A DNA stretch of 64,000 bases from Nannocystales bacterium. GTDB taxonomy: Bacteria > Myxococcota_A > Polyangia > Nannocystales > Nannocystaceae. The position numbers and the translations under genes were made by a program. Shown piece by piece: positions 38,537-64,000 of this stretch. Positions within the stretch are counted from its first letter, which is position 1, and the number at the start of each line of letters is the position of its first letter. The stretch is taken from the NCBI GenBank assembly GCA_050633305.1, contig JBOEGF010000015.1:160001-224000 (forward strand), read 5' to 3'. The notes under the pieces were generated by a model. That model did not search any database. It was not told the DNA's origin and saw only the letters and a program-made list of their open reading frames with translations.

Positions 38537-39295
38537 GTGGACATCGCGACCATCATCGGATTCGTAGCATCGGCAGTTCTCGTCGTCGGTACGATCGTAC
38601 TCGGAGGTGAACTCGGTCCCTTCATCGACGTTCCAAGTCTTCTGATCGTCGTGGGGGGTACCGTTGCAGCGGCCCTCACGGCAGAGTCGCTGCCCTCCTG
38701 CATCGGCTCCATCAAGGTCGCGATCAACGTCTTCAAAGTGAAGGGAAACGACGCGACGGAGACGATTGCGAAGATCGCCGAGTTGTCCACCGTGGCGCGT
38801 CGCGAAGGTATCGTCGCGCTCGAGAATGCGAAGGTCGAAGACGAGTTCTTCGGCCGCGCGTTGCGAATGGCCGCCGACGGTGCCAACGCTGACGAGATCA
38901 AGGCCACGCTCTCCGGCGAGATAGGGGCCATGAAGGCTCGTCACGAGCGTGGACAGAAGCTGTTCAAGTTCGTCGCGGCCAGTGCACCTGCGATGGGCAT
39001 GATCGGAACGCTGATCGGTCTGGTGCAGATGCTCCGGGCCCTCGACGACCCGGCCTCGATTGGCCCGGCCATGGCTGTTGCACTGTTGACGACGATGTAT
39101 GGAGCCATCATCGCGTTCCAGATCGCAGGTCCGATCGCGACGAAGCTCGAGCACCGGAGCACCGAAGAGGCCACGCACATGGGCGTGGTGCTCGACGGTA
39201 TCGGCGGCATCGTTCAAGGCTCCAACGCGCAGTCGATTCGCGACCGTCTCGAAGCCCGCTTGCCCCCAAGCCAGCGTCAGCAAGACGCTGCCTAG
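38537..39295 (+). CDS. motA: Flagellar stator A subunit (PomA/MotA-like)
   Basis: MDIATIIG, ARREGIVALE, APAMGMIGTLIGLVQML and MAVALLTTMYG. Confidence 0.93.
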   Translation: MDIATIIGFVASAVLVVGTIVLGGELGPFIDVPSLLIVVGGTVAAALTAESLPSCIGSIKVAINVFKVKGNDATETIAKIAELSTVARREGIVALENAKVEDEFFGRALRMAADGANADEIKATLSGEIGAMKARHERGQKLFKFVAASAPAMGMIGTLIGLVQMLRALDDPASIGPAMAVALLTTMYGAIIAFQIAGPIATKLEHRSTEEATHMGVVLDGIGGIVQGSNAQSIRDRLEARLPPSQRQQDAA

Positions 39296-39318
39296 CCCCA
39301 GCCTGAAGGGAGAGTGAC

Positions 39319-40161
39319 GTGGAAGAAGAAGAATGCGTATGCGAAGACAACAGCGGTGGCGAGTGGATGGCGACGTTTGCCGACCTCTCCATGCTGTTGC
39401 TGACCTTCTTCGTGCTTCTGCTCTCCTTCTCGAACATGGACGTGAAGCAGTTCCGAGAGATGCTCGGATCGGTTCAGGACGCGTTCGGTGTGCAGAAACA
39501 GATCGCCGGGTCGGTCGAGGCCATCGCTTCGTCGCCCGTCGAGCTGTCGATGGACCAAAACGACGGGGCAGGCTTCGCCTCGAAGCCGGGTGAACAAGCC
39601 ACCGATCCGAACGCGGAGATGATGGCGAAAATCTCGCAGTACGTGGAGAACCAAGACCTCGAGGACGACGTCGAGATTTTCTCGAGCCCGAAGGGCGTGG
39701 TCGTCCGCGTCAAAGACGGAGCGCTCTACGGGTCAGGCAGCGCCGAGCTGGACGAGAACGCCAAGAAGGTTCTGGACAAGATTTCGGGGATCCACGGCAA
39801 GTTTGCCGACAGCATCCAGATCGAGGGCCATACAGACAACAGCCCGATGCGCTCGAAGAAGTACCCGTCGAACTGGGAGCTCTCCACAGCCCGGGCCATT
39901 GCAGCGATGCACTACATGAGCGAGGAGGGCGGAATCGATGCCGGGAAGATCGGCGTCGCCGGGTACGCTGACTCGAAGCCGCTCGTGCCGAACGATACGG
40001 CCGAAGGCAGAAACAAGAACCGTCGCGTGGAGTTTGTGTTCTCCGCGAACGGCAAGAAGACCACGGTCACCGCGAACGACCAAGGCGTCACGGAGACCGA
40101 GTCATCCGACGATGACCCCGAGGGGCGGGCGTTCGCTCTCCCGATGAGTGCGTCCAAATGA
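39319..40161 (+). CDS. motB: Flagellar stator B subunit (PomB/MotB-like)
   Basis: WMATFADLSMLLLTFFVLL; OmpA-like GHTD, NWELSTARA and NRRVE. Confidence 0.93.
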   Translation: MEEEECVCEDNSGGEWMATFADLSMLLLTFFVLLLSFSNMDVKQFREMLGSVQDAFGVQKQIAGSVEAIASSPVELSMDQNDGAGFASKPGEQATDPNAEMMAKISQYVENQDLEDDVEIFSSPKGVVVRVKDGALYGSGSAELDENAKKVLDKISGIHGKFADSIQIEGHTDNSPMRSKKYPSNWELSTARAIAAMHYMSEEGGIDAGKIGVAGYADSKPLVPNDTAEGRNKNRRVEFVFSANGKKTTVTANDQGVTETESSDDDPEGRAFALPMSASK

Positions 40162-40218
40162 GAACCATCCCTACATCAACGACGTTCGGTGCCGCTGATG
40201 GAGGGCGGTCCTAGGCGC

Positions 40219-41040
40219 TTACAGGAGTGACAGCGCCATCGACGGGAGCTGGTTGGCTTGAGCCAACATCGCCGTACCCGCCTGCGACATGATCTGGTTT
40301 CGGGTCAGCGCTGCGGTTTCACGCGCCACGTCGACGTCACGGATTCGCGAGTTCGCAGAGGTGAGGTTTTCTTCCTCGGTGCGAAGGTTCTGCACCGTGA
40401 TCTCGAGGCGGTTCTGAGACGCACCCAGACCTGCGCGAGACGTCGACAGGGCGTCGATGGCTGTGTCGATGGTGCCCAGGGCCGTGGAGGCGCCTGCAGC
40501 CGTCGAGAGGTCCATGGCGTTGACACCCAGGGTGGTGGTGTCGGTCGCCGTGAACGCGACGTCGATCGTGTCGTTTGCGGTCGCATCCTTACCCACCTGC
40601 ATTGAGAACGTGCCGGCATCGCCGCCGAGCATGTTGAAGCCGTTGAACTCGCTGGCCTGCGAGATTCGCTGAACCTCGGCGACGAGCTGGTCATGCTCGG
40701 TGTCGATGAAGGCTCGCTCGTTGTCCGAGATAGCACCGTTGGCACTCTGCACCGCAAGCTCGCGGAGGCGGCCCATGATGTTTTGCTGCTCGTTCATCGC
40801 GCCTTCTGCGATCTGAATCATGGAGACGCCGTCGTTCGCGTTTCTCTCGGCCTGCCCGATACTGCGGATATCTGCTGTCATTCGTGAGGAGATTGCGAGG
40901 CCTGCGGCGTCGTCCGCGGCGCTGTTGATACGCATGCCGGAGCTCAGTCGAGTGATCGACTTTCCTAGCGCTCCTTGCGTCGCGGTGAGGTTGCGTTGCG
41001 CGCCCAAGGACGTCGCGTTGCTGATCATCGAAAAGGACAT
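40219..41040 (-). CDS. fliC: Flagellin (273 aa, D0/D1 only)
   Basis: RLSSGMRINSAADDAAGLAIS, RNANDG.S and SRIRDVD.A.E. Confidence 0.97.
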   Translation of the reverse strand: MSFSMISNATSLGAQRNLTATQGALGKSITRLSSGMRINSAADDAAGLAISSRMTADIRSIGQAERNANDGVSMIQIAEGAMNEQQNIMGRLRELAVQSANGAISDNERAFIDTEHDQLVAEVQRISQASEFNGFNMLGGDAGTFSMQVGKDATANDTIDVAFTATDTTTLGVNAMDLSTAAGASTALGTIDTAIDALSTSRAGLGASQNRLEITVQNLRTEEENLTSANSRIRDVDVARETAALTRNQIMSQAGTAMLAQANQLPSMALSLL

Positions 41041-41104: not shown

Positions 41105-41131
41105 CAATCGGCGAGAGGCTGGCCGCCTTTA
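41105..41131 (-). promoter_or_regulatory. Sigma28 (FliA) promoter of fliC
   Basis: Minus strand TAAA-GGCGGCCAGCCTCTC(15)-GCCGATTG, 65 nt upstream of the fliC ATG. Confidence 0.85.
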
Positions 41132-41278
41132 GGGCCCGTCATGCCCGGCAATGGCCAACGCGGGACCTTGAGTCCCGAAGCGAGACGGCAGGGCGCGCGC
41201 GGCTGTACCAAACCCCAGAAACAGAAAAACCCGGTGCCTCGAGAGGACACCGGGTTCGGTTGAAGTGCGATTGTGGGC

Positions 41279-42277
41279 TCAGCGGGCGCGGACTGAACGG
41301 CAGTCCGTTTCGTCGATCCCACAACGAATTCGTATGTGGAGGTGGGCGTTGTGGCCCTTGGAGTGCGAGATCACCCGACCTATGCGGCCAAGCTCAGCGG
41401 GCGTCGCACCCATGTCCTTGGCCGCGGCGCGCAACATGCCGTGCAAGCGGCGGCTGAGGAAGATGACCTCGACGTCTCCGGTGTCGATGAACGCACTGAT
41501 GAGCGCCCACGTCGCGTGCCAGTCGGTCTGTGCGTGGTTGGGGTGGGCCCCGCTGCGGTCCAGCCGCGGCAAGCGAACGTCCAGGTCGCGACCCGATTGG
41601 TGCGACTTGTGGGGTGGAAAATGTCCGCCCTCAGCCTTGCTCATCGAGCCGATGGTCAACGTGCCATCCCAGCCGGTGTTGCGGCGGAAGTCCCCGATCG
41701 CCGTCACGACGACCGACACCGCATGGGTGCTGCCGTACGCCAGCTCGGGCTTCCAGATGTCGAACAGCTCGGTCTGCGGCAACGGGATGCCGTTGACGAG
41801 CGTGCCGTCGTTCGGGCTGCCCGTGCTGAGGCCACCAAGCTGGAGATCCACGGCGGGAGCCACCTCGCCCTCGCGGCCTTCGTAGGGGTTCCAGCCAGAT
41901 GACCCCAGGGGGCGAGGCACCACGACCCGCGTTCCGGGCGCGGCGCTCTTGGTGAGCTGCGTGCGCAGCTTGGCCGCGGGAACATCGAGCGAGCGCGCGA
42001 TGCCTTCGACCGTGTCGCCTTCCTGCACGAAGTACACCGCGTTCATGCGCATGACGGGCCGAGCCTTGGCGCGGACCTGCATGACCCGCCCGGGCTTGAT
42101 GCGACCGCTGCCGCTCCCCACCCAGGGGTTCCACTGCCGCACCTGAGCCTCCGATACACCCCAGCGCTTTGCGACCTTGGCGACGGTGTCTCCGCGTTCG
42201 ACCTTGTGGGTCATCCAGCGGCCCTCGGCCTTGGGTGCCGCGAGCAGCGCGGCGGTGATCAGAAGTTGGTGCAGCAT
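41279..42277 (-). CDS. LysM x2 plus MepA-like (penicillin-insensitive) murein endopeptidase
   Basis: HKVERGDT and YFVQEGDT LysM repeats; HKSHQSGRDLD and HNAHLHIR zinc motifs. Confidence 0.88.
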   Translation of the reverse strand: MLHQLLITAALLAAPKAEGRWMTHKVERGDTVAKVAKRWGVSEAQVRQWNPWVGSGSGRIKPGRVMQVRAKARPVMRMNAVYFVQEGDTVEGIARSLDVPAAKLRTQLTKSAAPGTRVVVPRPLGSSGWNPYEGREGEVAPAVDLQLGGLSTGSPNDGTLVNGIPLPQTELFDIWKPELAYGSTHAVSVVVTAIGDFRRNTGWDGTLTIGSMSKAEGGHFPPHKSHQSGRDLDVRLPRLDRSGAHPNHAQTDWHATWALISAFIDTGDVEVIFLSRRLHGMLRAAAKDMGATPAELGRIGRVISHSKGHNAHLHIRIRCGIDETDCRSVRAR

Positions 42278-42284: not shown

Positions 42285-43568
42285 CTATCGCTTCAGGTTG
42301 TTCACTTCGGTGAGCATCTCGTCCGCAGTACTGATCGTGCGGGAGTTGGCTTGGAAGGCCCGCTGGTAGGCGATGAGCGTGACGAGCTCCTCCCCGAGGT
42401 CGACGTTGGAGCCCTCGAGGGCGCCCGAAGCGATGGAGCCGCGTCCCGACGTGCCGGCTTCGCCCAAGAGTGCTTGTCCGGAGTCTCGGGATGCGCTCCA
42501 CAACTGGTCGCCTTCGCGGCGCAGGTTCTCCGGGGCGCGGAAGGTCGCGAGGGCGAGCTTGGCCAGCGGTTCGGTCTCGCCGTTGGAGTACAGCCCCGAT
42601 ACGGTGCCGTCCTCGGCGGTGATCACGTCGATCAAGTCTCCAGGTTCGCGCCCGTTTTGGTCGAAGGACTCCACGGCGGAGGCTCCAGCCACCATGCTCG
42701 AACCCGTGCCGGTGCCACCGTCGGTGGTGATCGCGTCGCCGAAGTCGAACTGAATCGCCTGCCCGGCGGTGGCGCCCAGGAAGTCTGCGGACGAGCCGTT
42801 CAACGTCTCGGTATCGAGGTTGCCGTCGGTGTCAAAACCGAGCGTTCCGTCGGCGATCTCCGTGAGGACCCCGGGGGTGCCGCCGTTGAGCTCGTCGCCC
42901 ATCACCATCGCGTGCCATTCGAAGGCGCCGCCGCCGTTGTTCGTGAAGAACATCTGCACGTCATGCGCGTTGCCGAGCGAGTCGTAGACCGTCGCGCTGG
43001 TCTGGTAGTCCGACGTGTTCACGGGGTCGAGGGGGTCGAACGCGACGCCCGGGGTGTCGTCGGTGGGGCTGAGGTTGAGGTCCATGTTGGCGGTGGTCGT
43101 CGCGACCGGAGGCGACTGACCGCTGATCTCGATGTCCCCCACGCCGCCGGTGGGGTCGCCGTTCGCGTCGACCTGGTAGCCCTGCACGCGAAGGCCGTCC
43201 TGGTTCACCATCATGCCCTCGTTGTTGAGGCTGAACCGACCGTTGCGGGTGTAGTAGCTGCCCTCGATGCCGTCGTTCTCGCCGACGACCTCGAAGAATC
43301 CACCGCCTTGAATCGCGTAGTCGAGGCTGCCGCCGCTTTGAAGGAAGCTACCCTGCCCAAATCCCTGCGACACACTCCCCATCGTCACGCCAGCACCGAG
43401 GTTCTGGCCCCCGTTGGTGCGCCGACCCAAGACGTCGTTGAAGTTGGCCGAACCGGACTTGAAGCCCACGGTCGAGACGTTTGCGATGTTGTCACCGACG
43501 ACGTTGATCGCGTCGCCGTGCGCGGTGAGGCCGCTGCGGCCCGTGTATAGAGAACTCCAGATGGACAT
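42285..43568 (-). CDS. flgE: Flagellar hook protein
   Basis: GDNIANVSTVGFK, YTRNG.F and LEGSNVDL..ELV.LI..QRAFQAN. Confidence 0.95.
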   Translation of the reverse strand: MSIWSSLYTGRSGLTAHGDAINVVGDNIANVSTVGFKSGSANFNDVLGRRTNGGQNLGAGVTMGSVSQGFGQGSFLQSGGSLDYAIQGGGFFEVVGENDGIEGSYYTRNGRFSLNNEGMMVNQDGLRVQGYQVDANGDPTGGVGDIEISGQSPPVATTTANMDLNLSPTDDTPGVAFDPLDPVNTSDYQTSATVYDSLGNAHDVQMFFTNNGGGAFEWHAMVMGDELNGGTPGVLTEIADGTLGFDTDGNLDTETLNGSSADFLGATAGQAIQFDFGDAITTDGGTGTGSSMVAGASAVESFDQNGREPGDLIDVITAEDGTVSGLYSNGETEPLAKLALATFRAPENLRREGDQLWSASRDSGQALLGEAGTSGRGSIASGALEGSNVDLGEELVTLIAYQRAFQANSRTISTADEMLTEVNNLKR

Positions 43569-44301: not shown

Positions 44302-45555
44302 TCAGGCCACGACCCGGAAGCCGGTGGGGATCACCCAGGTCTGGCGTCCGTCGTCCACAAAGCCCAAGTCGCGCTCACCCTGCTCGGGTGTTGGGACGAT
44401 GCTCGGTGGCTGGCGCTGTTCGGGGTGCTCGGAGTCGTTGGGTGTGTCCGCGTCGGCGCCGTTGCCACCAAACGAGAGCTCGGTCAGCTCGAGGTCGTGT
44501 CGATCCAGTGCCTCGCGCAGGGCGTCGATGTCTCGCTGAATGGCATCGGTGAACCCGCCGACGGCGGTGGCTTCCACCATCACGTGTTTGCCGGCCGTGG
44601 TGATCGCGAGTTCGATCTGACCGTCTGCGGTGTCCACCGTAATCGCCGCGCGGTTGAGCGCGGTGCGAAGCACCTCCACGTTGCGGGCGACGGCGCCTTC
44701 GGGGTCGGCCGACGTGAACACGTTTCCGTCGGACCCGTACGAGGTCCCGGCGTCGTGTGAGACGGTCGGAACCGCGGAGAGGAAGGATGAGGAGTGGTCG
44801 GGGCTCGCGGCCGGGCCGTCGAAGTCGGCGATGGGAGCAAAGTTGGCCGAGGCGTCCTCGACGGGGGCTGCGTCATCCTGAACGGTGAGAGCCATCTCGA
44901 ACGCGCCGAGGGCATCGTCGAGGTCGACGAGAGGATCGGCATCGGGTTCGAGGGCTTCCCATCCCAGCTCCTGGACCAGAGGGAGTTCGCCCTCTTCGTC
45001 CTGGAACTCCATCTCCAGAGCGGTGGCGAGCATGACCTCCTCGGGAGGGGTCTGAACCAGCTCGGGATCGGGGCCTCGACTTTGTCCCCACGTGGGTGCG
45101 GGGGGCAGCCACGGGTCGTCGGAGTACGCCTGCGAGGACGGCACCGCCGGGGCTTCTTCTGGGGGAGCGTCGCCACCGAGGTCGGCGAACGTCGGGAAAC
45201 GAACGAATGTGCCGCGAGTCTGCGCGTAGGGGAGAGTCTGGCGCTTGGCCGTCTCCGCTGGATCCTCGGCCTGTCCTTTCGGGGCGCGGAGCTTCATCTC
45301 AGCGATGACGGTTCCGGTGGGTCCCTTGAGGTCGTCGAGATTTCCGAACTCCGCGGGTGCAGCGTCGTATCGGGACCGCTTGCGCGGCGCTCGGCGAGCC
45401 TCGATGGTCGCCGCGGGCTTGGGTTTCGGTTTGGGCTCGGGCTGCGTCTCTCGGTCGAGGATCTCGGCGAAGCCGCCGCGGGCTTTCTTGCGGTTGACGT
45501 TTCGAGCGCGCGGAAGCACCGCGTCGGTTTTGGCCGCGAAGTTGGTCTTGGTCAT
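44302..45555 (-). CDS. fliK: Putative hook-length control protein
   Basis: Low-complexity Pro/Ala/acidic body, C-terminal L.E.L...DL.L..L domain, position between fliJ and flgD. Confidence 0.65.
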   Translation of the reverse strand: MTKTNFAAKTDAVLPRARNVNRKKARGGFAEILDRETQPEPKPKPKPAATIEARRAPRKRSRYDAAPAEFGNLDDLKGPTGTVIAEMKLRAPKGQAEDPAETAKRQTLPYAQTRGTFVRFPTFADLGGDAPPEEAPAVPSSQAYSDDPWLPPAPTWGQSRGPDPELVQTPPEEVMLATALEMEFQDEEGELPLVQELGWEALEPDADPLVDLDDALGAFEMALTVQDDAAPVEDASANFAPIADFDGPAASPDHSSSFLSAVPTVSHDAGTSYGSDGNVFTSADPEGAVARNVEVLRTALNRAAITVDTADGQIELAITTAGKHVMVEATAVGGFTDAIQRDIDALREALDRHDLELTELSFGGNGADADTPNDSEHPEQRQPPSIVPTPEQGERDLGFVDDGRQTWVIPTGFRVVA

Positions 45556-46004
45556 GAGTCCTCACTCTTCTTGAGCACGCTGAGGTCATCGGTGAGCGAC
45601 TGCTCGAGTCGCTCCAGTGCGTGGCGTAGGCGTTTGCGATGGGTCAAGACCATCTGTTCGGCGGCGGAGAGGCGTGCATCACTTCCCCGCAGCGCCTCCA
45701 CGGCTTGGTCTCGGTCAGCACGCTCGCGGTGGAGCGCCTTGCGTTGTTCTTCTGCGTACGCGGTCCGGTTGTTTCGTTTTTCGAGGGCGGCTTCGAAACT
45801 GGAGATCGAACTCCAGCGGGGCGAGCCTTCGCGAAATTCGGCGTCCTGGTCCTCGATGGCGCTCGTTGCAGCGGCAACCGCCTCGGTCTGGGCATGCACG
45901 CGTTGGTTGGCCTCGGCGACCTCCATCGTGGCCTTGCTCTGCTGGACGAGCCGGAGCCGAACGAGCTTCTTTGCGTTGCGTAGTTGGCGTCTGTTCTCGC
46001 TCAT
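45552..46004 (-). CDS. fliJ: Putative flagellar export chaperone FliJ
   Basis: 150-aa coiled coil directly after fliI. Confidence 0.7.
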   Translation of the reverse strand: MSENRRQLRNAKKLVRLRLVQQSKATMEVAEANQRVHAQTEAVAAATSAIEDQDAEFREGSPRWSSISSFEAALEKRNNRTAYAEEQRKALHRERADRDQAVEALRGSDARLSAAEQMVLTHRKRLRHALERLEQSLTDDLSVLKKSEDS

Positions 46005-53122: not shown

Positions 53123-53244
53123 CGCATCCCGATCAGTAGGGCGATGCTCACGGCCGGGCAATGGCCGCAAACAGATAGGGACACGAGCGCGCTCGCCCCG
53201 GCCGCGGTTCGGCACGGGGGGCGTCGGGACTCTGACGAAAGCGT

Positions 53245-54482: not shown

Positions 54483-55252
54483 GAGACCGCTCGATTTCGC
54501 TGGCCTTGGGTTCGCGCGAACGAGGCGAGTTTTCGCTCGACCAGCTTGGGCTCATCTCGGCTGGCGAGCGCGCACGCTCCCTCGATCACGAGCTCCATGT
54601 CGTCCAGCTGTCCTTGGACACGAGTCTCCATTCGGCCTGCCAGAGGCAGCAGCACAAAGTTCGCCAGGCCCAGGCCGTAGATCGTCGCGACGAACGCGAG
54701 CGCGATACCGCTGCCGAGCTGGTCGGGGTTGCTGACCATACTCATGATGCGTACCAGGCCGAACACGGCACCGAGCACGCCCATCGTCGGGGCGAAGCCC
54801 CCGCCTGCTTGGAGCACCTCCACCGCCATCGCCGCACGTCGGTCGATCCGGGCGGCGCTCAGCTCGAGTGTGGTTCTGATGTCCTCGGCGCTCGAACCCC
54901 GTCCGACCATCTCCACCGCCGTATGCAACAGGCTCGATTCCGTGGCGACGTCGGCTGCCACGCCCAGAACCGCTTGGGTTCCTCGGCGGTGGACGGCGCC
55001 CGCCATGGCGACGAACAACCGAATCGTCTCTTCACGAGACAGGCGGTGAGATGCGACGTCTCCGCTGCGAAGGTCGAAGAAGACGTTACGGAGGGCCTCC
55101 CAACGGTACTGAACCGCGAGGGCGGCCATGGTGCCTCCCACGACGATGAGCGCCGCGGAGGGCTGCACCAACAAACCCAGCTCGCCACCATCGAGGAGGT
55201 GCGTGCCGACCAGTGCCAGCAGGGCGAGAAGGAATCCAACGACGACCGTCAC
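54479..55252 (-). CDS. motA: Second stator A subunit (MotA/MotC-like)
   Basis: GGFAPTMGVLGAV.GL and GIA.AFVAT.YG; GAAGGAG RBS before GTG 55252. Confidence 0.88.
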   Translation of the reverse strand: MTVVVGFLLALLALVGTHLLDGGELGLLVQPSAALIVVGGTMAALAVQYRWEALRNVFFDLRSGDVASHRLSREETIRLFVAMAGAVHRRGTQAVLGVAADVATESSLLHTAVEMVGRGSSAEDIRTTLELSAARIDRRAAMAVEVLQAGGGFAPTMGVLGAVFGLVRIMSMVSNPDQLGSGIALAFVATIYGLGLANFVLLPLAGRMETRVQGQLDDMELVIEGACALASRDEPKLVERKLASFARTQGQRNRAVS

Positions 55253-55402
55253 CGCTCCTTCATGGAGCCGCCATCCCCCCGAAACCAGGGCAGAGCGCGG
55301 GGTTGAGGAGGCCGAATCTCGGCCGCCGCCTGTTTTGACGAGCGGTCGTTGGATCGCCTGACGGTGCCTGTGGGAAAGCCCGCGAATGCGCGTCGATAGA
55401 CC

Positions 55403-55419
55403 TTGGCCCGGTGGTTGCA
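55403..55419 (+). promoter_or_regulatory. Sigma54 promoter of the fliM-flhB operon
   Basis: TTGGCCCGGTGGTTGCA (TGG-N10-GC). Confidence 0.75.
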
Positions 55420-55432
55420 CAGAACACCACCC

Positions 55433-56353
55433 GTGGACGAGACCCTCACTGGAGACGAGCGCGAAGCCCTACGGGAGTCGATCGTCAGCAGCGTCAACGA
55501 GCCCGCCAAGAAGGGCAAGGCTCCAAAAGCTCGCCCCGTCGCCCTCATCGCAGAGGACCAGGCCGCCGAACGCGTGATGCCCACCGCGCGGCGCGTGACC
55601 GATCGCTGGGCCACCCATGTCGGACGCATCATGCCGCCGCTGACCGGCGTGAAGGTCCGCGTCAAACCGCTCGAGCACATCGAGACCAACAACGGCGAGA
55701 TTCTCGAGGAGCTCCGACAAGCGTGGGTGTGCGAGATGAAGCCAAAGGTCGGAGAGGCACCCATCGCCGTCGCAGTGTCGGGTCGCATGATCCCCGACTT
55801 GGCCTCCACGATGCTGGGAGGAACCTTCAAGCTCTCCGAGGAGAGCGTGCCGACCCCGGCAACGATCCGGGTGTTCGAGTCGCTTGGTGAGCGGCTCGCC
55901 GAGTCCGCGGCGTTTGCCTTTGAGCACGAGTGCGGCGGTGTTCTCAAGCGTGGCTCGCACCAGCTGGGCGCCGACACCTGGTCACCTCTGGTCGACGGAG
56001 AGCCCATGCTGATGGTCTCGGTCGAGATCACCGGAGAGACCGAGGGCAAGCTCCACCTCGTCACGTCGCCGGACGCCTTGCATCGGGTGCGAACAGACGT
56101 TCGCGAGATGAAGACGGTGCGCTCGGGCGTCCGGGACCTGCTTGGCAAGCTCGAGACCGATCTGTCGGTCCAGCTCGGCACCACCAAGACCACGGCGCGC
56201 AAGTTTGCGGAGTTCGGCCCGGGCTCTGTTCTGACGTTGGACGCCCTCGTGGGCGACAGCGTTCGCATCTACGTCGGCGGACAGCTCCGCGCGACGGGCC
56301 GAGCGGTGTTGATGGGCGAGATGGTCGCAGTCGAAGTTGAGAGCGTCGTTTGA
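55433..56353 (+). CDS. fliM: Divergent motor switch protein FliM
   Basis: N-terminal LTGDEREAL, C-terminal SpoA/FliMN domain, position before fliN. Confidence 0.7.
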   Translation: MDETLTGDEREALRESIVSSVNEPAKKGKAPKARPVALIAEDQAAERVMPTARRVTDRWATHVGRIMPPLTGVKVRVKPLEHIETNNGEILEELRQAWVCEMKPKVGEAPIAVAVSGRMIPDLASTMLGGTFKLSEESVPTPATIRVFESLGERLAESAAFAFEHECGGVLKRGSHQLGADTWSPLVDGEPMLMVSVEITGETEGKLHLVTSPDALHRVRTDVREMKTVRSGVRDLLGKLETDLSVQLGTTKTTARKFAEFGPGSVLTLDALVGDSVRIYVGGQLRATGRAVLMGEMVAVEVESVV

Positions 56354-56369
56354 TGGAGAGGAAAGAACA

Positions 56370-56729
56370 ATGAGTGCAGCAGAAGCAGTGGTTCAAGAGG
56401 ACGAATCGGGGATGGTCGACGGCGCAGAAGGGACCCCCACCGCAGCCGCCAACGATGTCGTTGCCGCCAACGGCGAGCCGCACTCCTTCGAAAAACTCCT
56501 GGCGGATGTGCCCTTCCAGGTCACCGTCGAGCTGGGGCGTGTTCGACTCTCGCTCCGGGAGATCGGCCAACACTTGACGCCAGGCGCCGTCATTCCGCTC
56601 TCGAAGGTGACCGGCGAGAGCCTCGACATTCGAATCAACGACCGACTCGTCGCCCGCGGCGAAGCAGTGGCCATCGGAGAGCGCTACGGCGTCCGCATGG
56701 TCGAAATCCTCGATGGAGTAGACCAATGA
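56370..56729 (+). CDS. fliN: Motor switch protein FliN
   Basis: LADVP..VTVELGR, GE.LDI.IN.RLVARGE and YGVR. Confidence 0.93.
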   Translation: MSAAEAVVQEDESGMVDGAEGTPTAAANDVVAANGEPHSFEKLLADVPFQVTVELGRVRLSLREIGQHLTPGAVIPLSKVTGESLDIRINDRLVARGEAVAIGERYGVRMVEILDGVDQ

Positions 56730-57916
56730 TCGACTGGAAACGCGTTTGTTTGTGGGGAGCTCTTCTGGGTGCGGCCGCACCTGCCACCACCCAGGCCGCC
56801 GAGGCACCGACGGATGCCCGTTCCTCCGCGCCTCTGGCCACCGTCACGACCGACGACAGCGTCGAGATCCGAGTCCAGGGGCTCATGCCGGATGGGGATG
56901 AGGTGGAGTGGAAGTGGGGCAAGCTGGTCGTACCGGTCGAGTCCAAGCCTGCTGCTGCGTTCGCCGAGTCGTACACCGATGCGACGGTGAAACGCGTGGC
57001 GTTGGTCGGTGGAGAGAAGCCGCGGCTGATCGTCATGTTCCGGCACGGCTCCCGCACCGCGAAGAAGCTGACCGAAGCGAGCACGATCACCCACACTGGG
57101 GACGGGTTCCGAGTCGTCATTCCGCGTCGACACGTTCTCGCTCCCCCCGCGCCCGAGCCTGCTGCAGTTCCCACCCCCGTCGCGGAGCCCACTGTAGCCA
57201 AGGCACCCGCCGTGGCGGCACCCACCGCCGAGCCGGTGCCCGCCGCACCCGAGGCGGCCGAGAAGGCCCCCATCGCGGCCGCAGCTGTCGAGGTCGTCGA
57301 GGCAGCACCCGAAGCTGAACCGCTCAACTTGCCCGAGCCTGGCTCCGACGTTGGGTCGTCTTCCATCGGCCCGAGCAACAAGAGCATGTACGGAACGCTT
57401 GGGTTCACGTTTGTGCTGTTGGCGATCGGCGGCGTGTTCGTCTACTGGAAGCGCCGCAACGGCACGACTCCGGGGGCTCCACGCGGATTCACGGTGATGG
57501 GCAACCAGGTCCTCGGTCCCAAGTCGCGCATTGTGCTGATGGGCCTTGGCAACCGCCGCATGTTGCTCGCCGTCAGCGAAGCCGGGACCACAGTCGTGGA
57601 CAAGTGGAGCGAAGACAGCGACTACGTGCCATCGACATCGGTCCACGCCGAGGGCGGGCTCGACGAATCCTCTCTTGCCGCGATCGAGTTCGGCATGCCA
57701 GTCGACCCTCCCACGCCTCGCAGGAAGGCCAAGCGCGACACGCTGCGGGCCTACGAACCCCCCGCACCAGACATCGCCGAAGACGAAAATGCTGAGAGCA
57801 CCGCGGTCAACGGTCTGCGCAAGCTGCGGGAACAGATCGAGAGCGGTCAAGAAGAGGCCGACGAAGACGACGCGTGGTCGCAGGCGTTGGCCAACGGAAT
57901 CCGACGGAGCGCCTGA
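56726..57916 (+). CDS. fliO: FliO with large N-terminal periplasmic extension
   Basis: Signal peptide, beta domain, Pro/Ala linker, TM helix, then LGPKSRIVL......LLAV FliO motif; between fliN and fliP. Confidence 0.75.
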   Translation: MIDWKRVCLWGALLGAAAPATTQAAEAPTDARSSAPLATVTTDDSVEIRVQGLMPDGDEVEWKWGKLVVPVESKPAAAFAESYTDATVKRVALVGGEKPRLIVMFRHGSRTAKKLTEASTITHTGDGFRVVIPRRHVLAPPAPEPAAVPTPVAEPTVAKAPAVAAPTAEPVPAAPEAAEKAPIAAAAVEVVEAAPEAEPLNLPEPGSDVGSSSIGPSNKSMYGTLGFTFVLLAIGGVFVYWKRRNGTTPGAPRGFTVMGNQVLGPKSRIVLMGLGNRRMLLAVSEAGTTVVDKWSEDSDYVPSTSVHAEGGLDESSLAAIEFGMPVDPPTPRRKAKRDTLRAYEPPAPDIAEDENAESTAVNGLRKLREQIESGQEEADEDDAWSQALANGIRRSA

Positions 57917-57920
57917 TCCG

Positions 57921-58655
57921 ATGTTGTCGCGCCTCACCACCACGCTGGGGGTCTCCCTCGCGAGTCTGAGCTACTCCGCGAGCGCGTGGGCGGCCGAACC
58001 CCAGAGCGTCACGCTCAGCACCGAGCCGTCGCCCAGCATGATCCCGCTGGTCGTCATCTTCGGGCTGATGTCGCTGCTCCCGGCGCTGGTCCTGACGACA
58101 ACATGCTTCACCCGGTTCGTGATCGTGTTCTCGTTCTTGAAGACCGGGCTGGGCACCCAGGGCGCACCGCCCAACCAGGTGTTGGTGGGCTTGGCCTTGT
58201 TCATGACCGCGTTCGTGATGGCCCCGGTGGCCACCGAGATGTACGAGCAGGCGGGCGACCCCTACATGCAGGGCGCGCTCGATGAGTCCGAAGCGTATGC
58301 CGCCGCAGAGCCGGTGGCGCGCAAGTGGCTGCTGCCTCGTACCCGCCCCGAAGATCTGGCCCTTTTCTACGACTACACCAACGACCCCCGGCCAGAGACC
58401 GCGGACGACGTACCGCTGCGCATCGCTGTCCCGGCATACATCCTCTCTGAACTTCGCACCGCGTTTCAGATGGGTCTGTTGGTCCTGCTTCCGTTTCTCG
58501 TGATCGACCTCGTCGCTGCGACGGTGCTGTCGAGTTTGGGCATGGTCATGTTGCCTCCCACCCTCGTCTCTTTGCCGATCAAGCTGCTGGTGTTCGTGAT
58601 GGCGGACGGATGGAACGTCTTGGTGATGTCGCTGTTGCGCGGGGTGGCGATATGA
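57921..58655 (+). CDS. fliP: Export gate protein FliP
   Basis: TCFTRF.IV, PPNQVL.GLALF.T, PA.ILSELRTAFQ.G and LPIKLL.FV..DGW. Confidence 0.96.
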   Translation: MLSRLTTTLGVSLASLSYSASAWAAEPQSVTLSTEPSPSMIPLVVIFGLMSLLPALVLTTTCFTRFVIVFSFLKTGLGTQGAPPNQVLVGLALFMTAFVMAPVATEMYEQAGDPYMQGALDESEAYAAAEPVARKWLLPRTRPEDLALFYDYTNDPRPETADDVPLRIAVPAYILSELRTAFQMGLLVLLPFLVIDLVAATVLSSLGMVMLPPTLVSLPIKLLVFVMADGWNVLVMSLLRGVAI

Positions 58656-58966
58656 GCGGCGACCCCATGGTCCTGGAGCTGCTCTACGCAGCGCTCATCA
58701 CCGCGGCCAAGATCTCGGTCCCGATCCTTTCTGCTTCGCTCGTCGTCGGACTCGTCACCGCGTTGCTGCAGGCGGCCACCCAGCTTCAAGAGAACGTGAT
58801 CTCGTTCGTCCCCAAGCTGGTGATTGTTGGGCTCACCTTGATGCTCTCGGGCGATTGGATGCTCATGACACTCACCGACTACGCTCGCCTGGTCATCCGA
58901 CAAAGTGGCGAGCTGGGCGTCGTCCCGGGCGCGATGGCACCCACACCGCGGGACGAGCTCGAGTGA
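58652..58966 (+). CDS. fliQ: Export gate protein FliQ
   Basis: GL...LQAATQLQE...SFVPKL. Confidence 0.94.
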   Translation: MSGDPMVLELLYAALITAAKISVPILSASLVVGLVTALLQAATQLQENVISFVPKLVIVGLTLMLSGDWMLMTLTDYARLVIRQSGELGVVPGAMAPTPRDELE

Positions 58967-59703
58967 CGCCGTGGCACGAGATTCCTGGGCTGGGACTCGT
59001 GCCGGGGTTCCTGCTGATCTTCGTCCGCTTGGCGGCATTTCTGTGGGCCGCGCCGCTGACCGGTGATGGCCGCCTTCCGCCCAAGGTTCGCGTGGGCACC
59101 GCGGCTTTGGTGGCTGCGGCGTTCTCCAATCTGCACGAAGTGCACGGCTCGCCGGAACTGGGCCTGCAAGTCCCCCTCGAGGTGGGGGTGGGGTTCATCG
59201 CAGGGTTCACCGCGCGGCTCATGTTGGCCGGGCTCGAGGTTGGCGGCGAGCTCATCGGCATGCAGATGGGCTTGGGATTCGCGGGCACGTTCGACCCGTC
59301 GTTGGGCGACATGGCCCTGCCCATGCGCCGTATCGTATTCGTGATCGCGAGCTTCGCGTTCATCTCCGTGGGCGGCATTCAGAACGTCGCCCGGCTCGCG
59401 ATGCTCCCGCCGACCGACGTCGCGATTCTGTTCACCTCGTTTGGTGCGCTGATGCGGGCTTCGGGGGAGATGTTCCTGGTGGGCATTCACCTCGCCCTCC
59501 CGATCCTGGTTGCGGTGACGGTCGCCAACATCGCCATGGGCCTGGCCAACCGCGCCGCCCCGGCGCTCAATGTCTACTCGGTGATGTTGTCGCTCACCGG
59601 CCTAATGGGTGCGGGGGTGCTGCTGCTGATCGCGCCCTTGATGGCGTCCGAGATTCTCACGCGGGCCTATCGCGCGATGACCTCCCTCCCGGGTTTCCAC
59701 TGA
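58963..59703 (+). CDS. fliR: Export gate protein FliR
   Basis: Hydrophobic; GGELIGMQMGLGFA..FDP and GL.NRAAP.LN. Confidence 0.93.
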   Translation: MTPWHEIPGLGLVPGFLLIFVRLAAFLWAAPLTGDGRLPPKVRVGTAALVAAAFSNLHEVHGSPELGLQVPLEVGVGFIAGFTARLMLAGLEVGGELIGMQMGLGFAGTFDPSLGDMALPMRRIVFVIASFAFISVGGIQNVARLAMLPPTDVAILFTSFGALMRASGEMFLVGIHLALPILVAVTVANIAMGLANRAAPALNVYSVMLSLTGLMGAGVLLLIAPLMASEILTRAYRAMTSLPGFH

Positions 59704-59736: not shown

Positions 59737-60795
59737 ATGGCTGAAGAAAACAAGGATCAGAAAACACAAGAGGCGACACCGCGGCGCAAGGAGAAGGCAC
59801 GGCGCGACGGTGACATTGCCCGGTCCAAGGACCTCACGTTGTGGGCGACGCTCGTGGGTGGATTCGTTGGGGCGGGCGTGTTCGGTAAGCAGACGCTCGA
59901 GCTGATGATGGCGTACATGCAGCAACGCTGGAACGCGTTGGAGGCTCCCGTCGACCCGCCTGCCGTGTTCGAGGCGTTTTGGATCGTCGTCGAGGCCGCC
60001 TTTCCGGCCGGCCTCGGAGCGGTTCTTGGTTGGACGATCTCCAGCGCCGTTCAGTTGGGTTGGCCGCCCGCACTGACCAAACCGAAGTTCAACATCACCA
60101 AGATCATCACCTTCTCCGGCGCCAAGCAGATCTTCGCGCCCAAAGAGGCCGCCGTCCGCGGTGGGATGGCAGCAGGCAAGGTCATTCTCGTGCTCGCTGC
60201 CGCGGGAGCCGCCATCTACAAGGAACTCGATCTCATCGTGTCGATGCCCTCACTCGCCCCGGGTGCACTGGGAGACCACTTGGTGCCCGTGGTGGAGCGA
60301 ACGGTGAAATACGGCGCCGGCGTCCTCGCCATCATGGCTGCCGTCGACTTCTGGCACCAGAAACGTACGCACGGCCAGAAGATGAAGATGACGATGGAAG
60401 AGGTGAAGCGGGAGATGAAGGAGAGCGAAGGCGACCCCGCGTTCAAACAGAAGCGTCGTCGTCGGGCGCAAGAACTCGCGCGGAAGCCTCGGCCCGAGAT
60501 TGTGGTGCCGACCGCGGACGTCGTAATCGTCAACCCGACCCACTACTCGGTCGCACTGCGCTATGACAAGAACAAGGAGAACGCGCCTCGGGTTGTGGCC
60601 AAGGGCGTGGACGGGATGGCGGCGCAGATCCGAGAGGTTGCTCGGAAGAGCGGCGTGCCCATTGTCGAGCGACCTCCGCTCGCGCGATTGATGCACAAGC
60701 TTGTGGGCGAGGGGGACATGATCCCCGAGGATCTGTACAACGCGGTGGCCGAGGTGCTGGCGTATGTGTACCGACTGAAGGGCCGGATTCAGTAG
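59737..60795 (+). CDS. flhB: Export switch protein FlhB
   Basis: KT.EATPRR..AR..G, EVKRE.KE.EGDP and NPTH autocleavage motif. Confidence 0.96.
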   Translation: MAEENKDQKTQEATPRRKEKARRDGDIARSKDLTLWATLVGGFVGAGVFGKQTLELMMAYMQQRWNALEAPVDPPAVFEAFWIVVEAAFPAGLGAVLGWTISSAVQLGWPPALTKPKFNITKIITFSGAKQIFAPKEAAVRGGMAAGKVILVLAAAGAAIYKELDLIVSMPSLAPGALGDHLVPVVERTVKYGAGVLAIMAAVDFWHQKRTHGQKMKMTMEEVKREMKESEGDPAFKQKRRRRAQELARKPRPEIVVPTADVVIVNPTHYSVALRYDKNKENAPRVVAKGVDGMAAQIREVARKSGVPIVERPPLARLMHKLVGEGDMIPEDLYNAVAEVLAYVYRLKGRIQ

Positions 60796-61045: not shown

Positions 61046-62374
61046 GTGTTTCTTGCATTGGAACTCAATCGAAAGACCACGAACCCTTCAGGCACCAGGT
61101 ATGTCTTGTGCGCTGGCGTACTGCTGCTGACTGCGGGGTGCACTGGACCCGAAGCGATTTCCCCGGTGGGTGAGGGCTCGTCCTCGAGCGAGGGTTCTCC
61201 GGGGCCGTCCGGCTCGACGGGCTCGACGGGATCGACGGGTTCGACTGACTCGGACTCGGTTGGTGCGTCGAGCGACGACTCGGGCCTGGACAGCTCGTCG
61301 AGCGAGGACACGGGAGGCGACACGCAACCCCCTGGGTCCGTTTGTGGAAATGGCGTCGTGGAGAAGGGCGAGGGTTGCGACGAGCTGGACCGGCTTGATG
61401 AAGACGGATGCAATGTCGATTGTACGGTCTCAGGGTCCTTGCTTTGGAGCTGGGACCCCGATCGCTCGTGGGTGCTTGACCTCGACTTCGACGCCGCGGA
61501 CGCCCTTCAGGTGTTGGTGGGGATTCCGGGACCCGGTCTTTCGGTTCAACGCTTCGACGCGACGGGGGAGATCGACGGCACGTTCGGGGTGACCGCTGTG
61601 GAGAGACCGCCGGGGACTCCGGAGGGGCTTCCAGGCACCATCGAGTTCGCAGCTTTGGAGGCGAGGGATGAAGGTACGTACGTGGGTATGTACGAGTATT
61701 GGCAATCCGGCACAGAGTTCTTCGTCGGCGGGCACGTGGAGCAACTCGGAGACGGCGGATGGGTCCGCCCGGTCGAAGGAGGCGTCCAGAGCCTCGGCCC
61801 CAGAGAGGGGGGCGGCGTCATCGCAGTCTCTAGTGACGACGTCGTGCATGCATTCGACGCCGACGGGGCCGAAGCTTGGGCTGTCGAACCCGGAGGCGGC
61901 CTGCGCTCCGACACCTTGCTTGCCGAAGGGGCGGTCGTCGTTGTCGCCGTTGATCGCGTCGTGGGGTTGGACGACGCGACAGGGGCTGAGTTGTGGTCCT
62001 TTGTCGAGCCTGCTGTCGACATCATCTTTTACCGAGCAAGTCGGAGTGCGGACGAGATCTGGGCTTTCGGGCAGGCCTATCCGTTCACGGACGAGGTCTC
62101 GATGTTCCGCCTGGGCCTCGACGGGTCGCGCATCGAGCACATCGAGGCGGCCAGCATGGGCTCCTGGCATCAGATGACGTGGAGCGGGAACGTTGCGTGG
62201 CTGAGGAGCCAAGAGGCTGGCAGACCCGAACTTCTTGAGAAGCTGGGAGCCGACTTCGAGCCGCTGTGGGCGCACGAGGTGGGATACGGCGATGATTGGC
62301 GAAACCTTGCGGTGGACACCCGGGGCACGGTTGCCGCGGCCAGCCGCTCTCAGGTTCAGGTCTTGGCGCCCTAA
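61046..62374 (+). CDS. Lipoprotein with myxobacterial Cys-rich repeat (DUF4215-like) and PQQ-like beta-propeller
   Basis: Lipobox TAGC, GST linker, CGNGVVEKGEGCD...DGC..DC and LD.ATG.ELW. Confidence 0.8.
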   Translation: MFLALELNRKTTNPSGTRYVLCAGVLLLTAGCTGPEAISPVGEGSSSSEGSPGPSGSTGSTGSTGSTDSDSVGASSDDSGLDSSSSEDTGGDTQPPGSVCGNGVVEKGEGCDELDRLDEDGCNVDCTVSGSLLWSWDPDRSWVLDLDFDAADALQVLVGIPGPGLSVQRFDATGEIDGTFGVTAVERPPGTPEGLPGTIEFAALEARDEGTYVGMYEYWQSGTEFFVGGHVEQLGDGGWVRPVEGGVQSLGPREGGGVIAVSSDDVVHAFDADGAEAWAVEPGGGLRSDTLLAEGAVVVVAVDRVVGLDDATGAELWSFVEPAVDIIFYRASRSADEIWAFGQAYPFTDEVSMFRLGLDGSRIEHIEAASMGSWHQMTWSGNVAWLRSQEAGRPELLEKLGADFEPLWAHEVGYGDDWRNLAVDTRGTVAAASRSQVQVLAP

Positions 62375-62592
62375 ACGACGGCGCAGGAAGTACGAGTGTG
62401 TTGGTGCGCGCCACTGGTACCGATCCCGGACTCGGGGACGCGCGGTTCGACGCTTCGTGGAAACACCGTCCGCCGATGCTGCGCCGCGCGCTCACCCACG
62501 TCCCGAACCTGGCCGCGCGCGCCCTAGATCTGGACGCTCGCCGCACCGATGGGACTGGCCCTTACGAATCGGCCGACCAATAGAACAGTTTA

Positions 62593-64000
62593 GTGGCGAC
62601 CAAAGAAGCCAGCGCGGGCGGGCGCAACGTGGGAGACGCCATCGGGGCCGTGCTCATGGTCGGCGTCCTTGCGCTCGCGGTGCTTCCGTTGCCTCCGGCG
62701 CTGCTCGACCTGCTGATGTCGGCGAGCCTGTGTGTGTCGCTGCTCATCTTCTTGGTGGCGATGTACGTGGAGAAGCCGCTCGACTTCTCGTCGTTCCCGT
62801 CGCTGCTCGTTCTGGTGACGCTATTTCGTCTGAGCCTCAACGTCGCTTCGACCCGAAACATCCTCCTTCATGGAGGTGAGGGGCTCGATGCGGCAGGTCA
62901 GGTCATCGCGGCGTTCGGTGAGTTCGTGGTCGGCGGCAACTTCGTGGTTGGCGCGGTCGTGTTCCTGATTCTGGTCTTGGTGAACTTCATCGTGATCACA
63001 AAAGGTGCCGACCGAATCTCCGAGGTCGGCGCTCGCTTCACGTTGGACTCGTTGCCGGGCAAGCAGATGGCGATCGACTCCGACCTTGTCGCGGGTCTCA
63101 TCGACGAGAAGACCGCCCGCAAGCGTCGCGAAGAAGTCCAGGCGCACGCGGAGTTTCACGGGGCGATGGATGGTGCCTCCAAGTTCGTCCGTGGCGACGC
63201 GATCGCCGGACTGATCATCGTGGCGATCAACCTCATTGCGGGCGTCATCGTTGGCGTGATGCAGCACGGGTTGTCGCCGCTGGAGTCGGCTGAGACCTAC
63301 AGCATCTTGTCCATCGGGGACGGACTCGTCTCGCAGCTTCCGGCGCTGCTGGTCTCGACGGGCGCCGCCCTCTTGGTGACGCGCGACAGCAACGCGACCG
63401 GCGGCATGATGTCGTCGCTCACCGGGCAGCTCATCATGCGCCCGAAGGCGGCCTGGGCCACGGGGGCGGTGCTTGCTCTGCTCGGGGTTGTGCCGGGCAT
63501 GCCTCACTTCCCCTTGTTGGCGGTTGCTGGGATTGCCTGCGGAATGGGTTACTTTGGAGACAAGCGCGCCAAGGACACCGCTACGCCGGCCCGGTCGAAA
63601 GCTGTCGATGCGAAGAAGAAGGCCGACCTGGACCGCAAGCGGTTGCTCGACCCCGAGGCGCAGAAGCAAGAAATCGCCGAGGTTCTTCCGGTCGACCTGG
63701 TGTCGATGGAGCTCGGGCTCCAGTTGCTTCCCCTTGCCGACCTCAGTCGAGACGGCGAGCTTCTCGGGCGCATCGCCGGGGTGCGGAAACAAATGGCGAA
63801 GGAGCTGGGCTTCATCGTCCCACCGGTCTCGATTCGCGACGATGTGGGTGCCAAGCCCTCGAGCTACAAGCTGCTCATCTCAGGCGTGAAGGTTGCCGAG
63901 GGAGAGATTCGAGTGGGTCGGATGCTCGCCATCGACCCATCGGGTCAGGCGACGGCCAACCTGCCCGGCGCGATGGTGCGAGAGCCAACGTTCGGCCTTC
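62593..64000 (+). CDS. flhA: Flagellar export protein FlhA (runs off the window end; absent from the ORF track)
   Basis: Hand translation from GTG 62593 gives PLDFSSFPSLL..TLFRLSLNVASTR, ITKGADRISEVGARFTLDSLPGKQMAID and GAMDGASKFVRGDAIAG. Confidence 0.96.
   Translation, partial: MATKEASAGGRNVGDAIGAVLMVGVLALAVLPLPPALLDLLMSASLCVSLLIFLVAMYVEKPLDFSSFPSLLVLVTLFRLSLNVASTRNILLHGGEGLDAAGQVIAAFGEFVVGGNFVVGAVVFLILVLVNFIVITKGADRISEVGARFTLDSLPGKQMAIDSDLVAGLIDEKTARKRREEVQAHAEFHGAMDGASKFVRGDAIAGLIIVAINLIAGVIVGVMQHGLSPLESAETYSILSIGDGLVSQLPALLVSTGAALLVTRDSNATGGMMSSLTGQLIMRPKAAWATGAVLALLGVVPGMPHFPLLAVAGIACGMGYFGDKRAKDTATPARSKAVDAKKKADLDRKRLLDPEAQKQEIAEVLPVDLVSMELGLQLLPLADLSRDGELLGRIAGVRKQMAKELGFIVPPVSIRDDVGAKPSSYKLLISGVKVAEGEIRVGRMLAIDPSGQATANLPGAMVREPTFGL

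Follow-up and report, generated by a model that had tools for sequence, protein, structure and literature searches.

The DNA examined here, referred to throughout as the window, is a stretch of 64,000 nucleotides (positions 160001-224000 of contig C15, JBOEGF010000015.1) from the 11.0-Mb draft genome of a Nannocystales bacterium, which consists of 90 contigs with a GC content of about 0.66 and is 92 percent complete. The right-hand part of the window carries a flagellar gene cluster, which is the subject of this work. Open frames were called by third-position GC and scanned against Pfam, with NCBIfam as a second library, and fliP and fliQ were taken from the list of open reading frames. In total, 25 flagellar genes and one sigma54 activator were recognized by Pfam between 38486 and 64000, and the cluster continues into the adjoining sequence (L001, C15:223001-243000) to form a single 39-kb regulon of about 40 flagellar genes, extending from window position 38486 to L001:14482 (window-equivalent 77482), about 13.5 kb past the right edge. 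Every frame of the regulon is open and of normal length, none is broken, and no gap in the cluster exceeds about 250 bp. A first-pass annotation, made from the letters of the window, had reported more than 20 flagellar genes with no visible frameshifts and a GC and codon style shared with the host, and both statements hold: the GC content of the cluster (0.63-0.67) and its third-position GC (0.73-0.87) are uniform and in line with the rest of the window.

The cluster opens on the forward strand with a first stator pair, motA1 (38486-39295, MotA_ExbB) and motB1 (39319-40161, MotB_plug plus OmpA). The reverse strand then encodes the flagellin FliC1 (40219-41040, 273 amino acids, ATG at 41040; Flagellin_N and Flagellin_C, also matched by NCBIfam), a secreted LysM and M74 (MepA-like) murein endopeptidase (41279-42277, Pfam and NCBIfam), and the products of flgE (42285-43568), flgD, a fliK-like gene (44302-45555), a fliJ-like gene (45552-46004), fliI, fliH, fliG, fliF (49127-50821), fliE, flgC and flgB (51599-51994). 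The endopeptidase, whose gene occupies the same position in another species' genome (G006), is a candidate peptidoglycan opener for passage of the rod. Also on the reverse strand are a gene for a sigma54 enhancer-binding protein with AAA+ and Fis-type helix-turn-helix domains (52130-53215) and fliL (53245-53733), both matched by Pfam and NCBIfam, followed by a second stator pair, motB2 (53730-54482, MotB_plug plus OmpA) and motA2 (54479-55420, with a real start that is probably later; MotA_ExbB). The best NCBIfam models are of the PomA/MotP and MotB/MotS types for the first stator pair and of the MotD and PRK09109 types for the second, and all of these equivalog matches fall under their cut-offs. 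The forward strand resumes with a divergent fliM (55433-56353, GTG start, 306 residues), recognized by its predicted fold and FliN-like C-terminus, and then, by Pfam, fliN (56337-56729), fliO (56726-57916), fliP (within 57546-58655), fliQ (58652-58966), fliR (58855-59703), flhB (59737-60795) and, past an intervening lipoprotein gene, flhA (62593-64000), of which the window holds the first 469 of 705 codons.

Several genes that the first-pass annotation had missed in the window and expected past its right edge (flgFGHIKL, fliD, fliA and flhF) were all found in L001. There the end of flhA is followed, in order, by flhF, a MinD-like flhG, fliA, flgF, flgG, flgA, flgH (170.7 bits in Pfam), flgI, a rod-binding FlgJ-like gene, flgM, flgK, flgL, a second flagellin gene (fliC2), fliD and fliS. 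FlhF, FliA and FlgM score over their curated NCBIfam cut-offs. All six components of the export gate (FlhA, FlhB, FliP, FliQ, FliR and FliO) are above their Pfam cut-offs, with FlhA reaching 810 bits over its full length, and the ATPase complex is represented by clear FliH and FliI and a weaker FliJ. The set for rod, L and P rings, hook, junction, filament and cap is likewise present (FlgB/C/F/G, FliE, FlgA/H/I, FlgD/E, FliK, FlgK/L, FliC, FliD and FliS). The host genome holds three flagellins and one FliG, and therefore one flagellar system. Assignment of the cluster to a non-flagellar (SctV-type) type III secretion system was ruled out by the full axial and filament gene set. A separate, non-flagellar type III export gate does occur elsewhere in the genome (G000 C5:280772-282511; about 395 bits to FHIPEP over two separate pieces), and all family genomes searched for such a gate have one too.

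FliO is long (396 residues): a signal peptide and a beta-rich periplasmic N-terminal domain, some 110 residues in length, are joined to the FliO core by a linker rich in Pro and Ala. A survey of FliO proteins reports AMIN- or LysM-bearing forms in Myxococcota (PMC12248157), and the window protein resembles the AMIN-FliO forms, although a Pfam search of its long N-terminus at E<=0.5 gave no AMIN match. The lipoprotein encoded between flhB and flhA (61046-62374, forward strand) combines a lipobox (LLTAGC), a Ser/Gly-rich linker, a cysteine-rich stretch of myxobacterial type and PQQ/BamB-like repeats; of the myxobacterial-type lipoproteins that had been described as interleaved with the flagellar genes, this one gene was borne out.

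A sequence-divergent FliM

The Pfam FliM family (PF02154) was not detected anywhere in the host genome at E<=1, although it was found in four flagellated control genomes, and the only Pfam match in the 55433-56353 protein is to a FliN-type C-terminal domain. We therefore compared this protein by alignment and by predicted structure. A profile built from 14 sequences (alignment A1: the window protein, 9 of 20 database homologues and the counterparts from genomes G014, G030, G332 and G233) gave a weak match to the solved FliM middle domain 7dm9_A (E 0.0076). The AlphaFold model (mean pLDDT 70.4, core 85-92) matches FliM chains of the Salmonella C ring (Foldseek E 4e-12), and superposes on isolated FliM middle domains with TM scores of 0.73-0.77 by target length and an rmsd of 3.0-3.5 A. 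At the N-terminus, L5, E9 and A12 are invariant in the 14 sequences, with a spacing that we take to be that of the CheY-binding LSQxEIDAL peptide of E. coli. The protein is thus laid out as a CheY-peptide-like N-terminus, a middle domain of CheC/FliM fold unseen by PF02154 and a FliN-like C-terminus, and it is a FliM that has strongly diverged in sequence and is recognizable only by its fold. Because the modelled protein folds like FliM, the C ring is complete, its other components FliF, FliG and FliN being identified by Pfam. PF02154 was also missed in each of the five genomes tested from the flagellar lineage termed X below (the host, G006, G014, G030 and G332), and was found in G015, a genome of lineage Y.

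Candidate promoters and regulators

A sigma28-like candidate promoter (TAAAG-N14-GCCGATTG, 41105-41131, reverse strand) lies 65 bp upstream of the fliC1 ATG; a purine-rich stretch precedes this ATG, and a terminator-like hairpin of the upstream gene is located at about 41215-41250. Sigma54-like candidates of the -24/-12 type were seen about 38 bp upstream of the flgB ATG (cGGCAC-N5-gTGCA, 52032-52047, reverse strand) and directly before the fliM GTG (TGGCCC-N5-TTGCA, 55404-55419, forward strand). The sigma54 activator encoded in the cluster has only about 50 residues ahead of its AAA+ domain, and therefore lacks a receiver domain. A perfect sigma54 consensus, TGGCACGGTCGTTGCT, was observed outside the window at L001:16470-16485 (reverse strand), 15 bp upstream of an open frame on the same strand (L001:15937-16455) that encodes 172 residues without a family match and lies about 2 kb after fliS; this frame may represent an unrecognized member of the flagellar regulon.

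Placement of the host

In a GyrB tree of 50 rows the Nannocystaceae are monophyletic (100 percent SH-aLRT) and the host genome is nested within them, in a derived subclade (99 percent) together with genera g7, g9, g13, g15 and g10. Identity to the window GyrB is 83-93 percent within the host genus and 61-78 percent within the family, where the top two values come from partial matches, as compared to 52-57 percent outside the family, with 58 percent for one partial match. The names of the nearest records point the same way. A search of species genomes with FlhA returned eight loci, of which four are close (95, 95, 88 and 73 percent identity) and four are from Armatimonadota (41-43 percent), the latter brought in by a pattern pre-filter and serving as outgroup only; the 73-percent locus and one of the 95-percent loci are Nannocystaceae records from metagenome-assembled genomes (MAGs). 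Similarly, FliM homologues at 89 and 76 percent identity carry the NCBI name Nannocystaceae bacterium, a family placed by NCBI in Nannocystales, Polyangia and Myxococcota, and a myxobacterial cysteine-rich repeat (TIGR02232, 63.8 bits in NCBIfam) directly follows the flagellar cluster. This placement is by a single marker and by record names rather than by multiple genes; so judged, the host is a member of Nannocystaceae belonging to an uncultured genus (g1), in agreement with the Nannocystaceae-like myxobacterium proposed at first pass. A second, partial gyrB was noted in the draft (G000 C50:21989-23713), 94 percent identical to the window GyrB over residues 253-827, which suggests a closely related second strain or a duplicated fragment.

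Selection and probable loss within the genus

FlhA and GyrB were compared between the host and genomes G001, G002 and G006 by the Nei-Gojobori method. For FlhA the dN/dS ratios are 0.049, 0.050 and 0.099, respectively, and for GyrB they are 0.072, 0.075 and 0.124. Synonymous divergence is 0.57 for FlhA versus 0.54 for GyrB in G001, 0.71 versus 0.55 in G002 and 0.93 versus 0.64 in G006. FlhA thus evolves under strong purifying selection. Judged by this gene, conservation of the flagellar cluster is no weaker than that of a housekeeping gene, and the cluster has diverged together with the chromosome within the genus.

Not all members of the genus have it. FlgI (PF02119) is present in 4 of its 7 genomes, the host included, and no FlgI, flagellar FlhA or FliG was found in G003, G004 or G005, whose completeness is 84, 90 and 72 percent. 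Of these three, G003 and G005 come out in the GyrB tree as sister to the flagellated species. In G005 a single contig carries gyrB and two left-flank genes, then 12.5 kb of unrelated genes, and then the right-flank genes, so that the flagellar cluster and its surroundings, 46.8 kb in the host, are replaced between conserved flanks. No flagellar remnants were found in this 12.5-kb stretch, in which tblastx against the host cluster gave only short matches of at most 34 bits. In G004 one intact flagellin of 276 amino acids with both N- and C-terminal domains was observed beside an IS91-type transposase (L121:10005-10835, G004:C27). Because genus g9 shares the same flagellar lineage at a distance proportional to that of GyrB, it is more parsimonious to assume that these congeners lost the apparatus than that the other species gained it, and we infer that the absences in G003, G004 and G005 reflect loss.

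Two flagellar lineages in the family

The window FlhA shares 95, 95 and 88 percent identity with its counterparts in the genus, and the value falls to 74 percent for g9, to 62 percent for family f8 and to 58 percent for family f19. The five remaining flagellated genera of Nannocystaceae reach only 49-52 percent, which is no higher than in unrelated families of the class. In an FlhA tree of 56 rows the class forms one clade (98 percent), within which f8, f19, g9 and the host genus g1 make up one lineage (X, 100 percent SH-aLRT) and the other 16 family sequences a second (Y, 100 percent). The stators agree with this division: a PomA-like MotA1 (E<=1e-30) occurs in 5 of the 72 family genomes, exactly those of lineage X. 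The family holds two deeply diverged flagellar lineages. Ratios of FlhA to GyrB path lengths are 0.69 from the host to g9, 0.71 to f8 and 0.70 to f19, and 0.74-1.06 within Y, as compared to 1.95-3.3 between X and Y within the family, and by this measure X and Y each look vertically inherited in their own range. Two histories are compatible with this pattern: a double system in the ancestor that was later sorted by loss, or an old transfer inside the class.

The second of these would mean that the whole X cluster of g1 and g9 entered Nannocystaceae horizontally, with a related family of this class, near f8 or f19, as the donor, replacing Y or arriving after its loss, with the flagellum still being built. 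We regard this as a serious candidate whose likelihood falls a little short of even. In its favour, the FlhA sequences of g1 and g9 join those of f8 and f19 and stand apart from the 16 others, and g1, g9 and g10 share one derived GyrB subclade. Forcing the family to be monophyletic for FlhA costs 88 log-likelihood units and is rejected by an AU test (p=6.6e-7; 41 rows, LG+G4). For FlgI, FliF and FliG, too, f8 ranks ahead of g8 and g10 in closeness, with f19 values about level with g8 and g10; no genome among the 72 of the family holds two flagellar FlhA, that is, both X and Y; and the same chromosomal site is occupied by other genes in G005. Several observations pull the other way. The near-equal path ratios to g9, f8 and f19 (0.69-0.71) are what would be expected if X had descended vertically from an ancestor common to these families, neither f8 nor f19 encloses g1 and g9 in the tree, and the cluster has the GC and codon style of the host. 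In addition, the AU test, done under that one model, came after inspection of the tree, although the group had been defined by taxonomy.

More tentatively, and with a good deal less than an even chance, the stem of Nannocystaceae may itself have had two anciently diverged systems: X, common to the sister families f8 and f19 and marked by the divergent FliM and a PomA-like extra stator, and a family-specific Y. Each genus would later have retained at most one of the two, and the fruiting gliders in culture would have lost both. If so, the non-flagellated glider would be a derived state reached repeatedly, with loss still ongoing in this genus. Double flagellar systems do exist in the class, because G030 (L042, L051) and G024 (L004, L052), from other families, carry two flagellar-type FlhA each; the second FlhA of these genomes belongs to a third, very divergent lineage with 34-38 percent identity to the window FlhA.

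Predicted function of the apparatus

Whichever way lineage X reached the family, the aggregate data are best explained by a complete, selectively maintained flagellar regulon, inherited with the chromosome in this genus, that most probably builds a working rotary swimming flagellum with L and P rings. Polar placement by FlhF and FlhG and a cascade from sigma54 to sigma28 are established in other bacteria. By analogy, FlhF and FlhG would place few flagella at the pole of the host cell, the sigma54 activator would switch on the basal-body and hook operons, and FliA and FlgM would then release flagellin expression. The motor would be driven by two stator sets, one PomA/MotP-like and one MotC/D-like, and phosphorylated CheY would act at the conserved N-terminal peptide of the sequence-divergent FliM.

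Some points weigh against this reading. FlgN and FliT were not found in the regulon, its L001 part included. Three proteins score under their Pfam cut-offs, namely FliK (21.8 bits versus 29.8), FliJ (18.7 versus 28.4) and the 125-residue FlgJ-like protein in its rod-binding, FlgJ N-terminal match (22.6 versus 25.1), although the first occupies its canonical place and FliJ lies, as is canonical, between fliI and fliK. Counts of promoter motifs in the window are not above chance (sigma54, 24 versus 21.65 expected from shuffles; sigma28, 6 versus 3.72), and those in L001 are similar (6 versus 7.33 and 2 versus 1.19). Of the correctly placed sigma54 and sigma28 promoters that had been claimed, the single sites before fliC, flgB and fliM therefore stand as candidates, well placed as they are. 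The genome is an incomplete draft, and its second partial gyrB points to some strain mixing. Finally, three congeners live without the apparatus, which makes it dispensable in the genus.

The first-pass annotation had allowed for either a swimming stage or a repurposed apparatus. Of these, swimming is the best reading that the gene content offers. Conversion to a secretion device or adhesin platform no longer used for swimming would accord with the gliding of cultured relatives and with the unusual divergence of FliM, and the genome does have a separate non-flagellar type III gate; nevertheless it is very unlikely, given that three flagellins, FliD, FlgK/L, FliS, FlgM/FliA, two stator pairs, FliL, the L and P rings and the CheY-peptide-like N-terminus of FliM are all intact. 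A secretion-only system would have no need of these. Slightly less probable still is a relic in early decay, its genes open yet unused. The loss of the apparatus from G003, G004 and G005, with only an orphan flagellin kept in G004, is in its favour, but dN/dS ratios of 0.05-0.10 over branches with dS of 0.57-0.93, and about 40 intact frames, speak against it.

Integrity of the contig

Genome G006 belongs to another species (GyrB 87 percent identical) and carries gyrB, a deacetylase gene, a gene for a 603-residue protein, the GGDEF/HDOD and HDOD genes, motAB, fliC, the peptidase gene, flgE and flgD in the same order on one contig, on which gyrB and flhA are 45 kb apart, versus 46.5 kb in the host. 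In G002, the segment that starts at the GGDEF/HDOD gene and runs by way of motA to flgD is unbroken, and its contig also bears gyrB. Since the assembly of a different species thus shows gyrB, the left flank and the flagellar genes in colinear order, the contig of the host is judged not to be chimeric, and a chimera, named at first pass as a reason to doubt the cluster, finds no support in these independent assemblies. The two other grounds for doubt named there, host markers outside Myxococcota and a genome-wide absence of the essential distal genes, do not apply either. That the flagellar half of the contig came from another organism through an assembly or binning artefact is extremely improbable, since against the second partial gyrB (94 percent identity) on contig C50 stand the junction and gene order shared with G002 and G006, the matching gyrB-flhA spacing on one G006 contig, the uniform composition along the window and the like dS of flhA and gyrB for G001 (0.57 versus 0.54).

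The G002 regulon was seen to be spread over two contigs, with motAB to flgD on C18 and flhA, flgI and fliC2 on C13, and about 86 kb are inserted in that genome between the left-flank genes and the GGDEF/HDOD gene. A single sequencing run (X1, DNA), labelled microbial mat metagenome and possibly from the source sample, is listed as containing the stretch, with 0.56 of the sampled words, and no RNA run is listed for it. Over 30-48 kb the contigs of X1 are short and have a depth of 2-6; one bin is empty, and none of the pieces crosses the junction. The label of this run is the only basis for the aquatic lineage that had been suggested.

Neighbouring genes

A replication-origin region takes up the left third of the window, with dnaA (619-2106), dnaN (2973-4118), recF (6426-7673) and gyrB (16032-18515), all on the forward strand and recognized by Pfam. 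After it come genes typical of large genomes, among them those for a TPR-containing Ser/Thr kinase and a LysR regulator and a MbnB/TglH-family gene. The flagellar regulon starts only about 20 kb from this dnaA-dnaN-recF-gyrB region (1-18515), and the cumulative GC skew turns near 6-8 kb of the window. At 25417-27978 the gene for a MbnB/TglH/ChrH-family enzyme, which modifies ribosomally synthesized peptides (RiPPs; 25417-26250), lies beside those for a methyltransferase and a double-DUF1330 protein, and may form with them a small peptide-modification locus. A VWA-domain protein (31564-32790) is weakly similar at its C-terminus to the adventurous-gliding adhesin CglB (57.6 bits versus a cut-off of 200, a partial match). 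Immediately left of the cluster are genes for a GGDEF-HDOD protein (35671-37398, forward strand) and an HDOD/HD protein (37510-38421, reverse strand), both matched by Pfam and NCBIfam, which are likely c-di-GMP-linked regulators.

Occurrence and comparison with known systems

Myxobacteria are presented in textbooks as non-flagellated gliders. Within Nannocystaceae, however, the FlgI marker is present in 24 of 72 species genomes and 7 of 17 genera, and in 17 of the 42 genomes that are at least 90 percent complete with at most 5 percent contamination. It is absent from all genomes of g17 (11 of 11), g14 (11 of 11) and g15 (6 of 6), and the cultured genera are probably among those without flagella. 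In an even sample of the phylum at 80 percent completeness or more, FlgI was found in 164 of 401 genomes; counted by genus, it is present in 126 of 256. The view taken at first pass, that myxobacterial flagellar clusters are noted mainly in Anaeromyxobacter, thus overstates their rarity, as printed accounts already indicate, such gene sets being frequent among uncultured Myxococcota. That a third of the species genomes of the family carry this marker bears on the origin of the gliding, social life style. Here a full flagellum gene set is maintained under selection in an uncultured genus whose family also has fruiting members in culture, and the flagellated and non-flagellated genomes within it provide material for studying loss.

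In its regulators the host cluster resembles the polar systems of Vibrio, Pseudomonas and Campylobacter, which likewise have FlhF, a MinD-like FlhG, a sigma54 activator and FliA/FlgM, and also two stator sets. Unlike those systems, its activator has neither a receiver nor a FleQ-type N-terminal domain, and no master regulator was identified in the regulon. Closer at hand, the lineage-Y clusters of other Nannocystaceae genera (for example, G015, G013 and G041) share with the host sets that include FlhA, FlgI, FliF and FliG, but their FlhA is only 49-52 percent identical to that of the host and they lack a PomA-like MotA1 at E<=1e-30. G015 differs further in that its FliM is canonical and detected by Pfam, and in that one strand carries its genes from fliF to flhA in colinear order, those of the host being divergent.

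A further comparison is with Anaeromyxobacter, from a different class of the phylum. A 55.7-kb flagellar cluster was described in Anaeromyxobacter dehalogenans 2CP-C, swimming was reported in strain K and a flagellated ancestor was argued for (Thomas et al. 2008, PMC2330069). Like the 39-kb regulon of the host, this is one large cluster in which more than 30 flagellar genes lie together, motAB and fliC among them. According to the accessible text of that paper, fliJ, flgN, fliT, flgA, flgJ and fliK are missing from it, whereas the host has flgA and fliK-like, fliJ-like and flgJ-like genes; chemotaxis genes are embedded in it, whereas the host cluster contains no che genes. Flagellar genes have also been seen in uncultured Myxococcota, both in MAG surveys and in genome-wide trait maps. 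For example, flagellar assembly is listed for Myxococcota MAGs from Zodletone (Murphy et al. 2021, 10.1101/2021.07.06.451402), flagellin is among the most expressed genes of predatory-bacteria MAGs from a seamount, Myxococcota and Bdellovibrionota being taken together (PMC11937823), and a 2026 preprint mapping flagellar motility on GTDB counts Myxococcota as a motile phylum. As in the host, the Zodletone and seamount MAGs bring flagellar assembly genes to uncultured, non-soil Myxococcota; they belong to other orders or classes, and the portions of these reports available to us do not treat Nannocystaceae, cluster anatomy or flagellar phylogeny. Similarly, no description of flagella in Nannocystaceae was found in the openly available literature on Nannocystaceae, Nannocystales or Polyangia, subscription journals being outside its scope. 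Set against these known systems, the existence of flagellar genes in such bacteria is not new; what the present analysis adds is the two lineages within one family, the divergent FliM and the replacement of the whole cluster between syntenic flanks in a congener.

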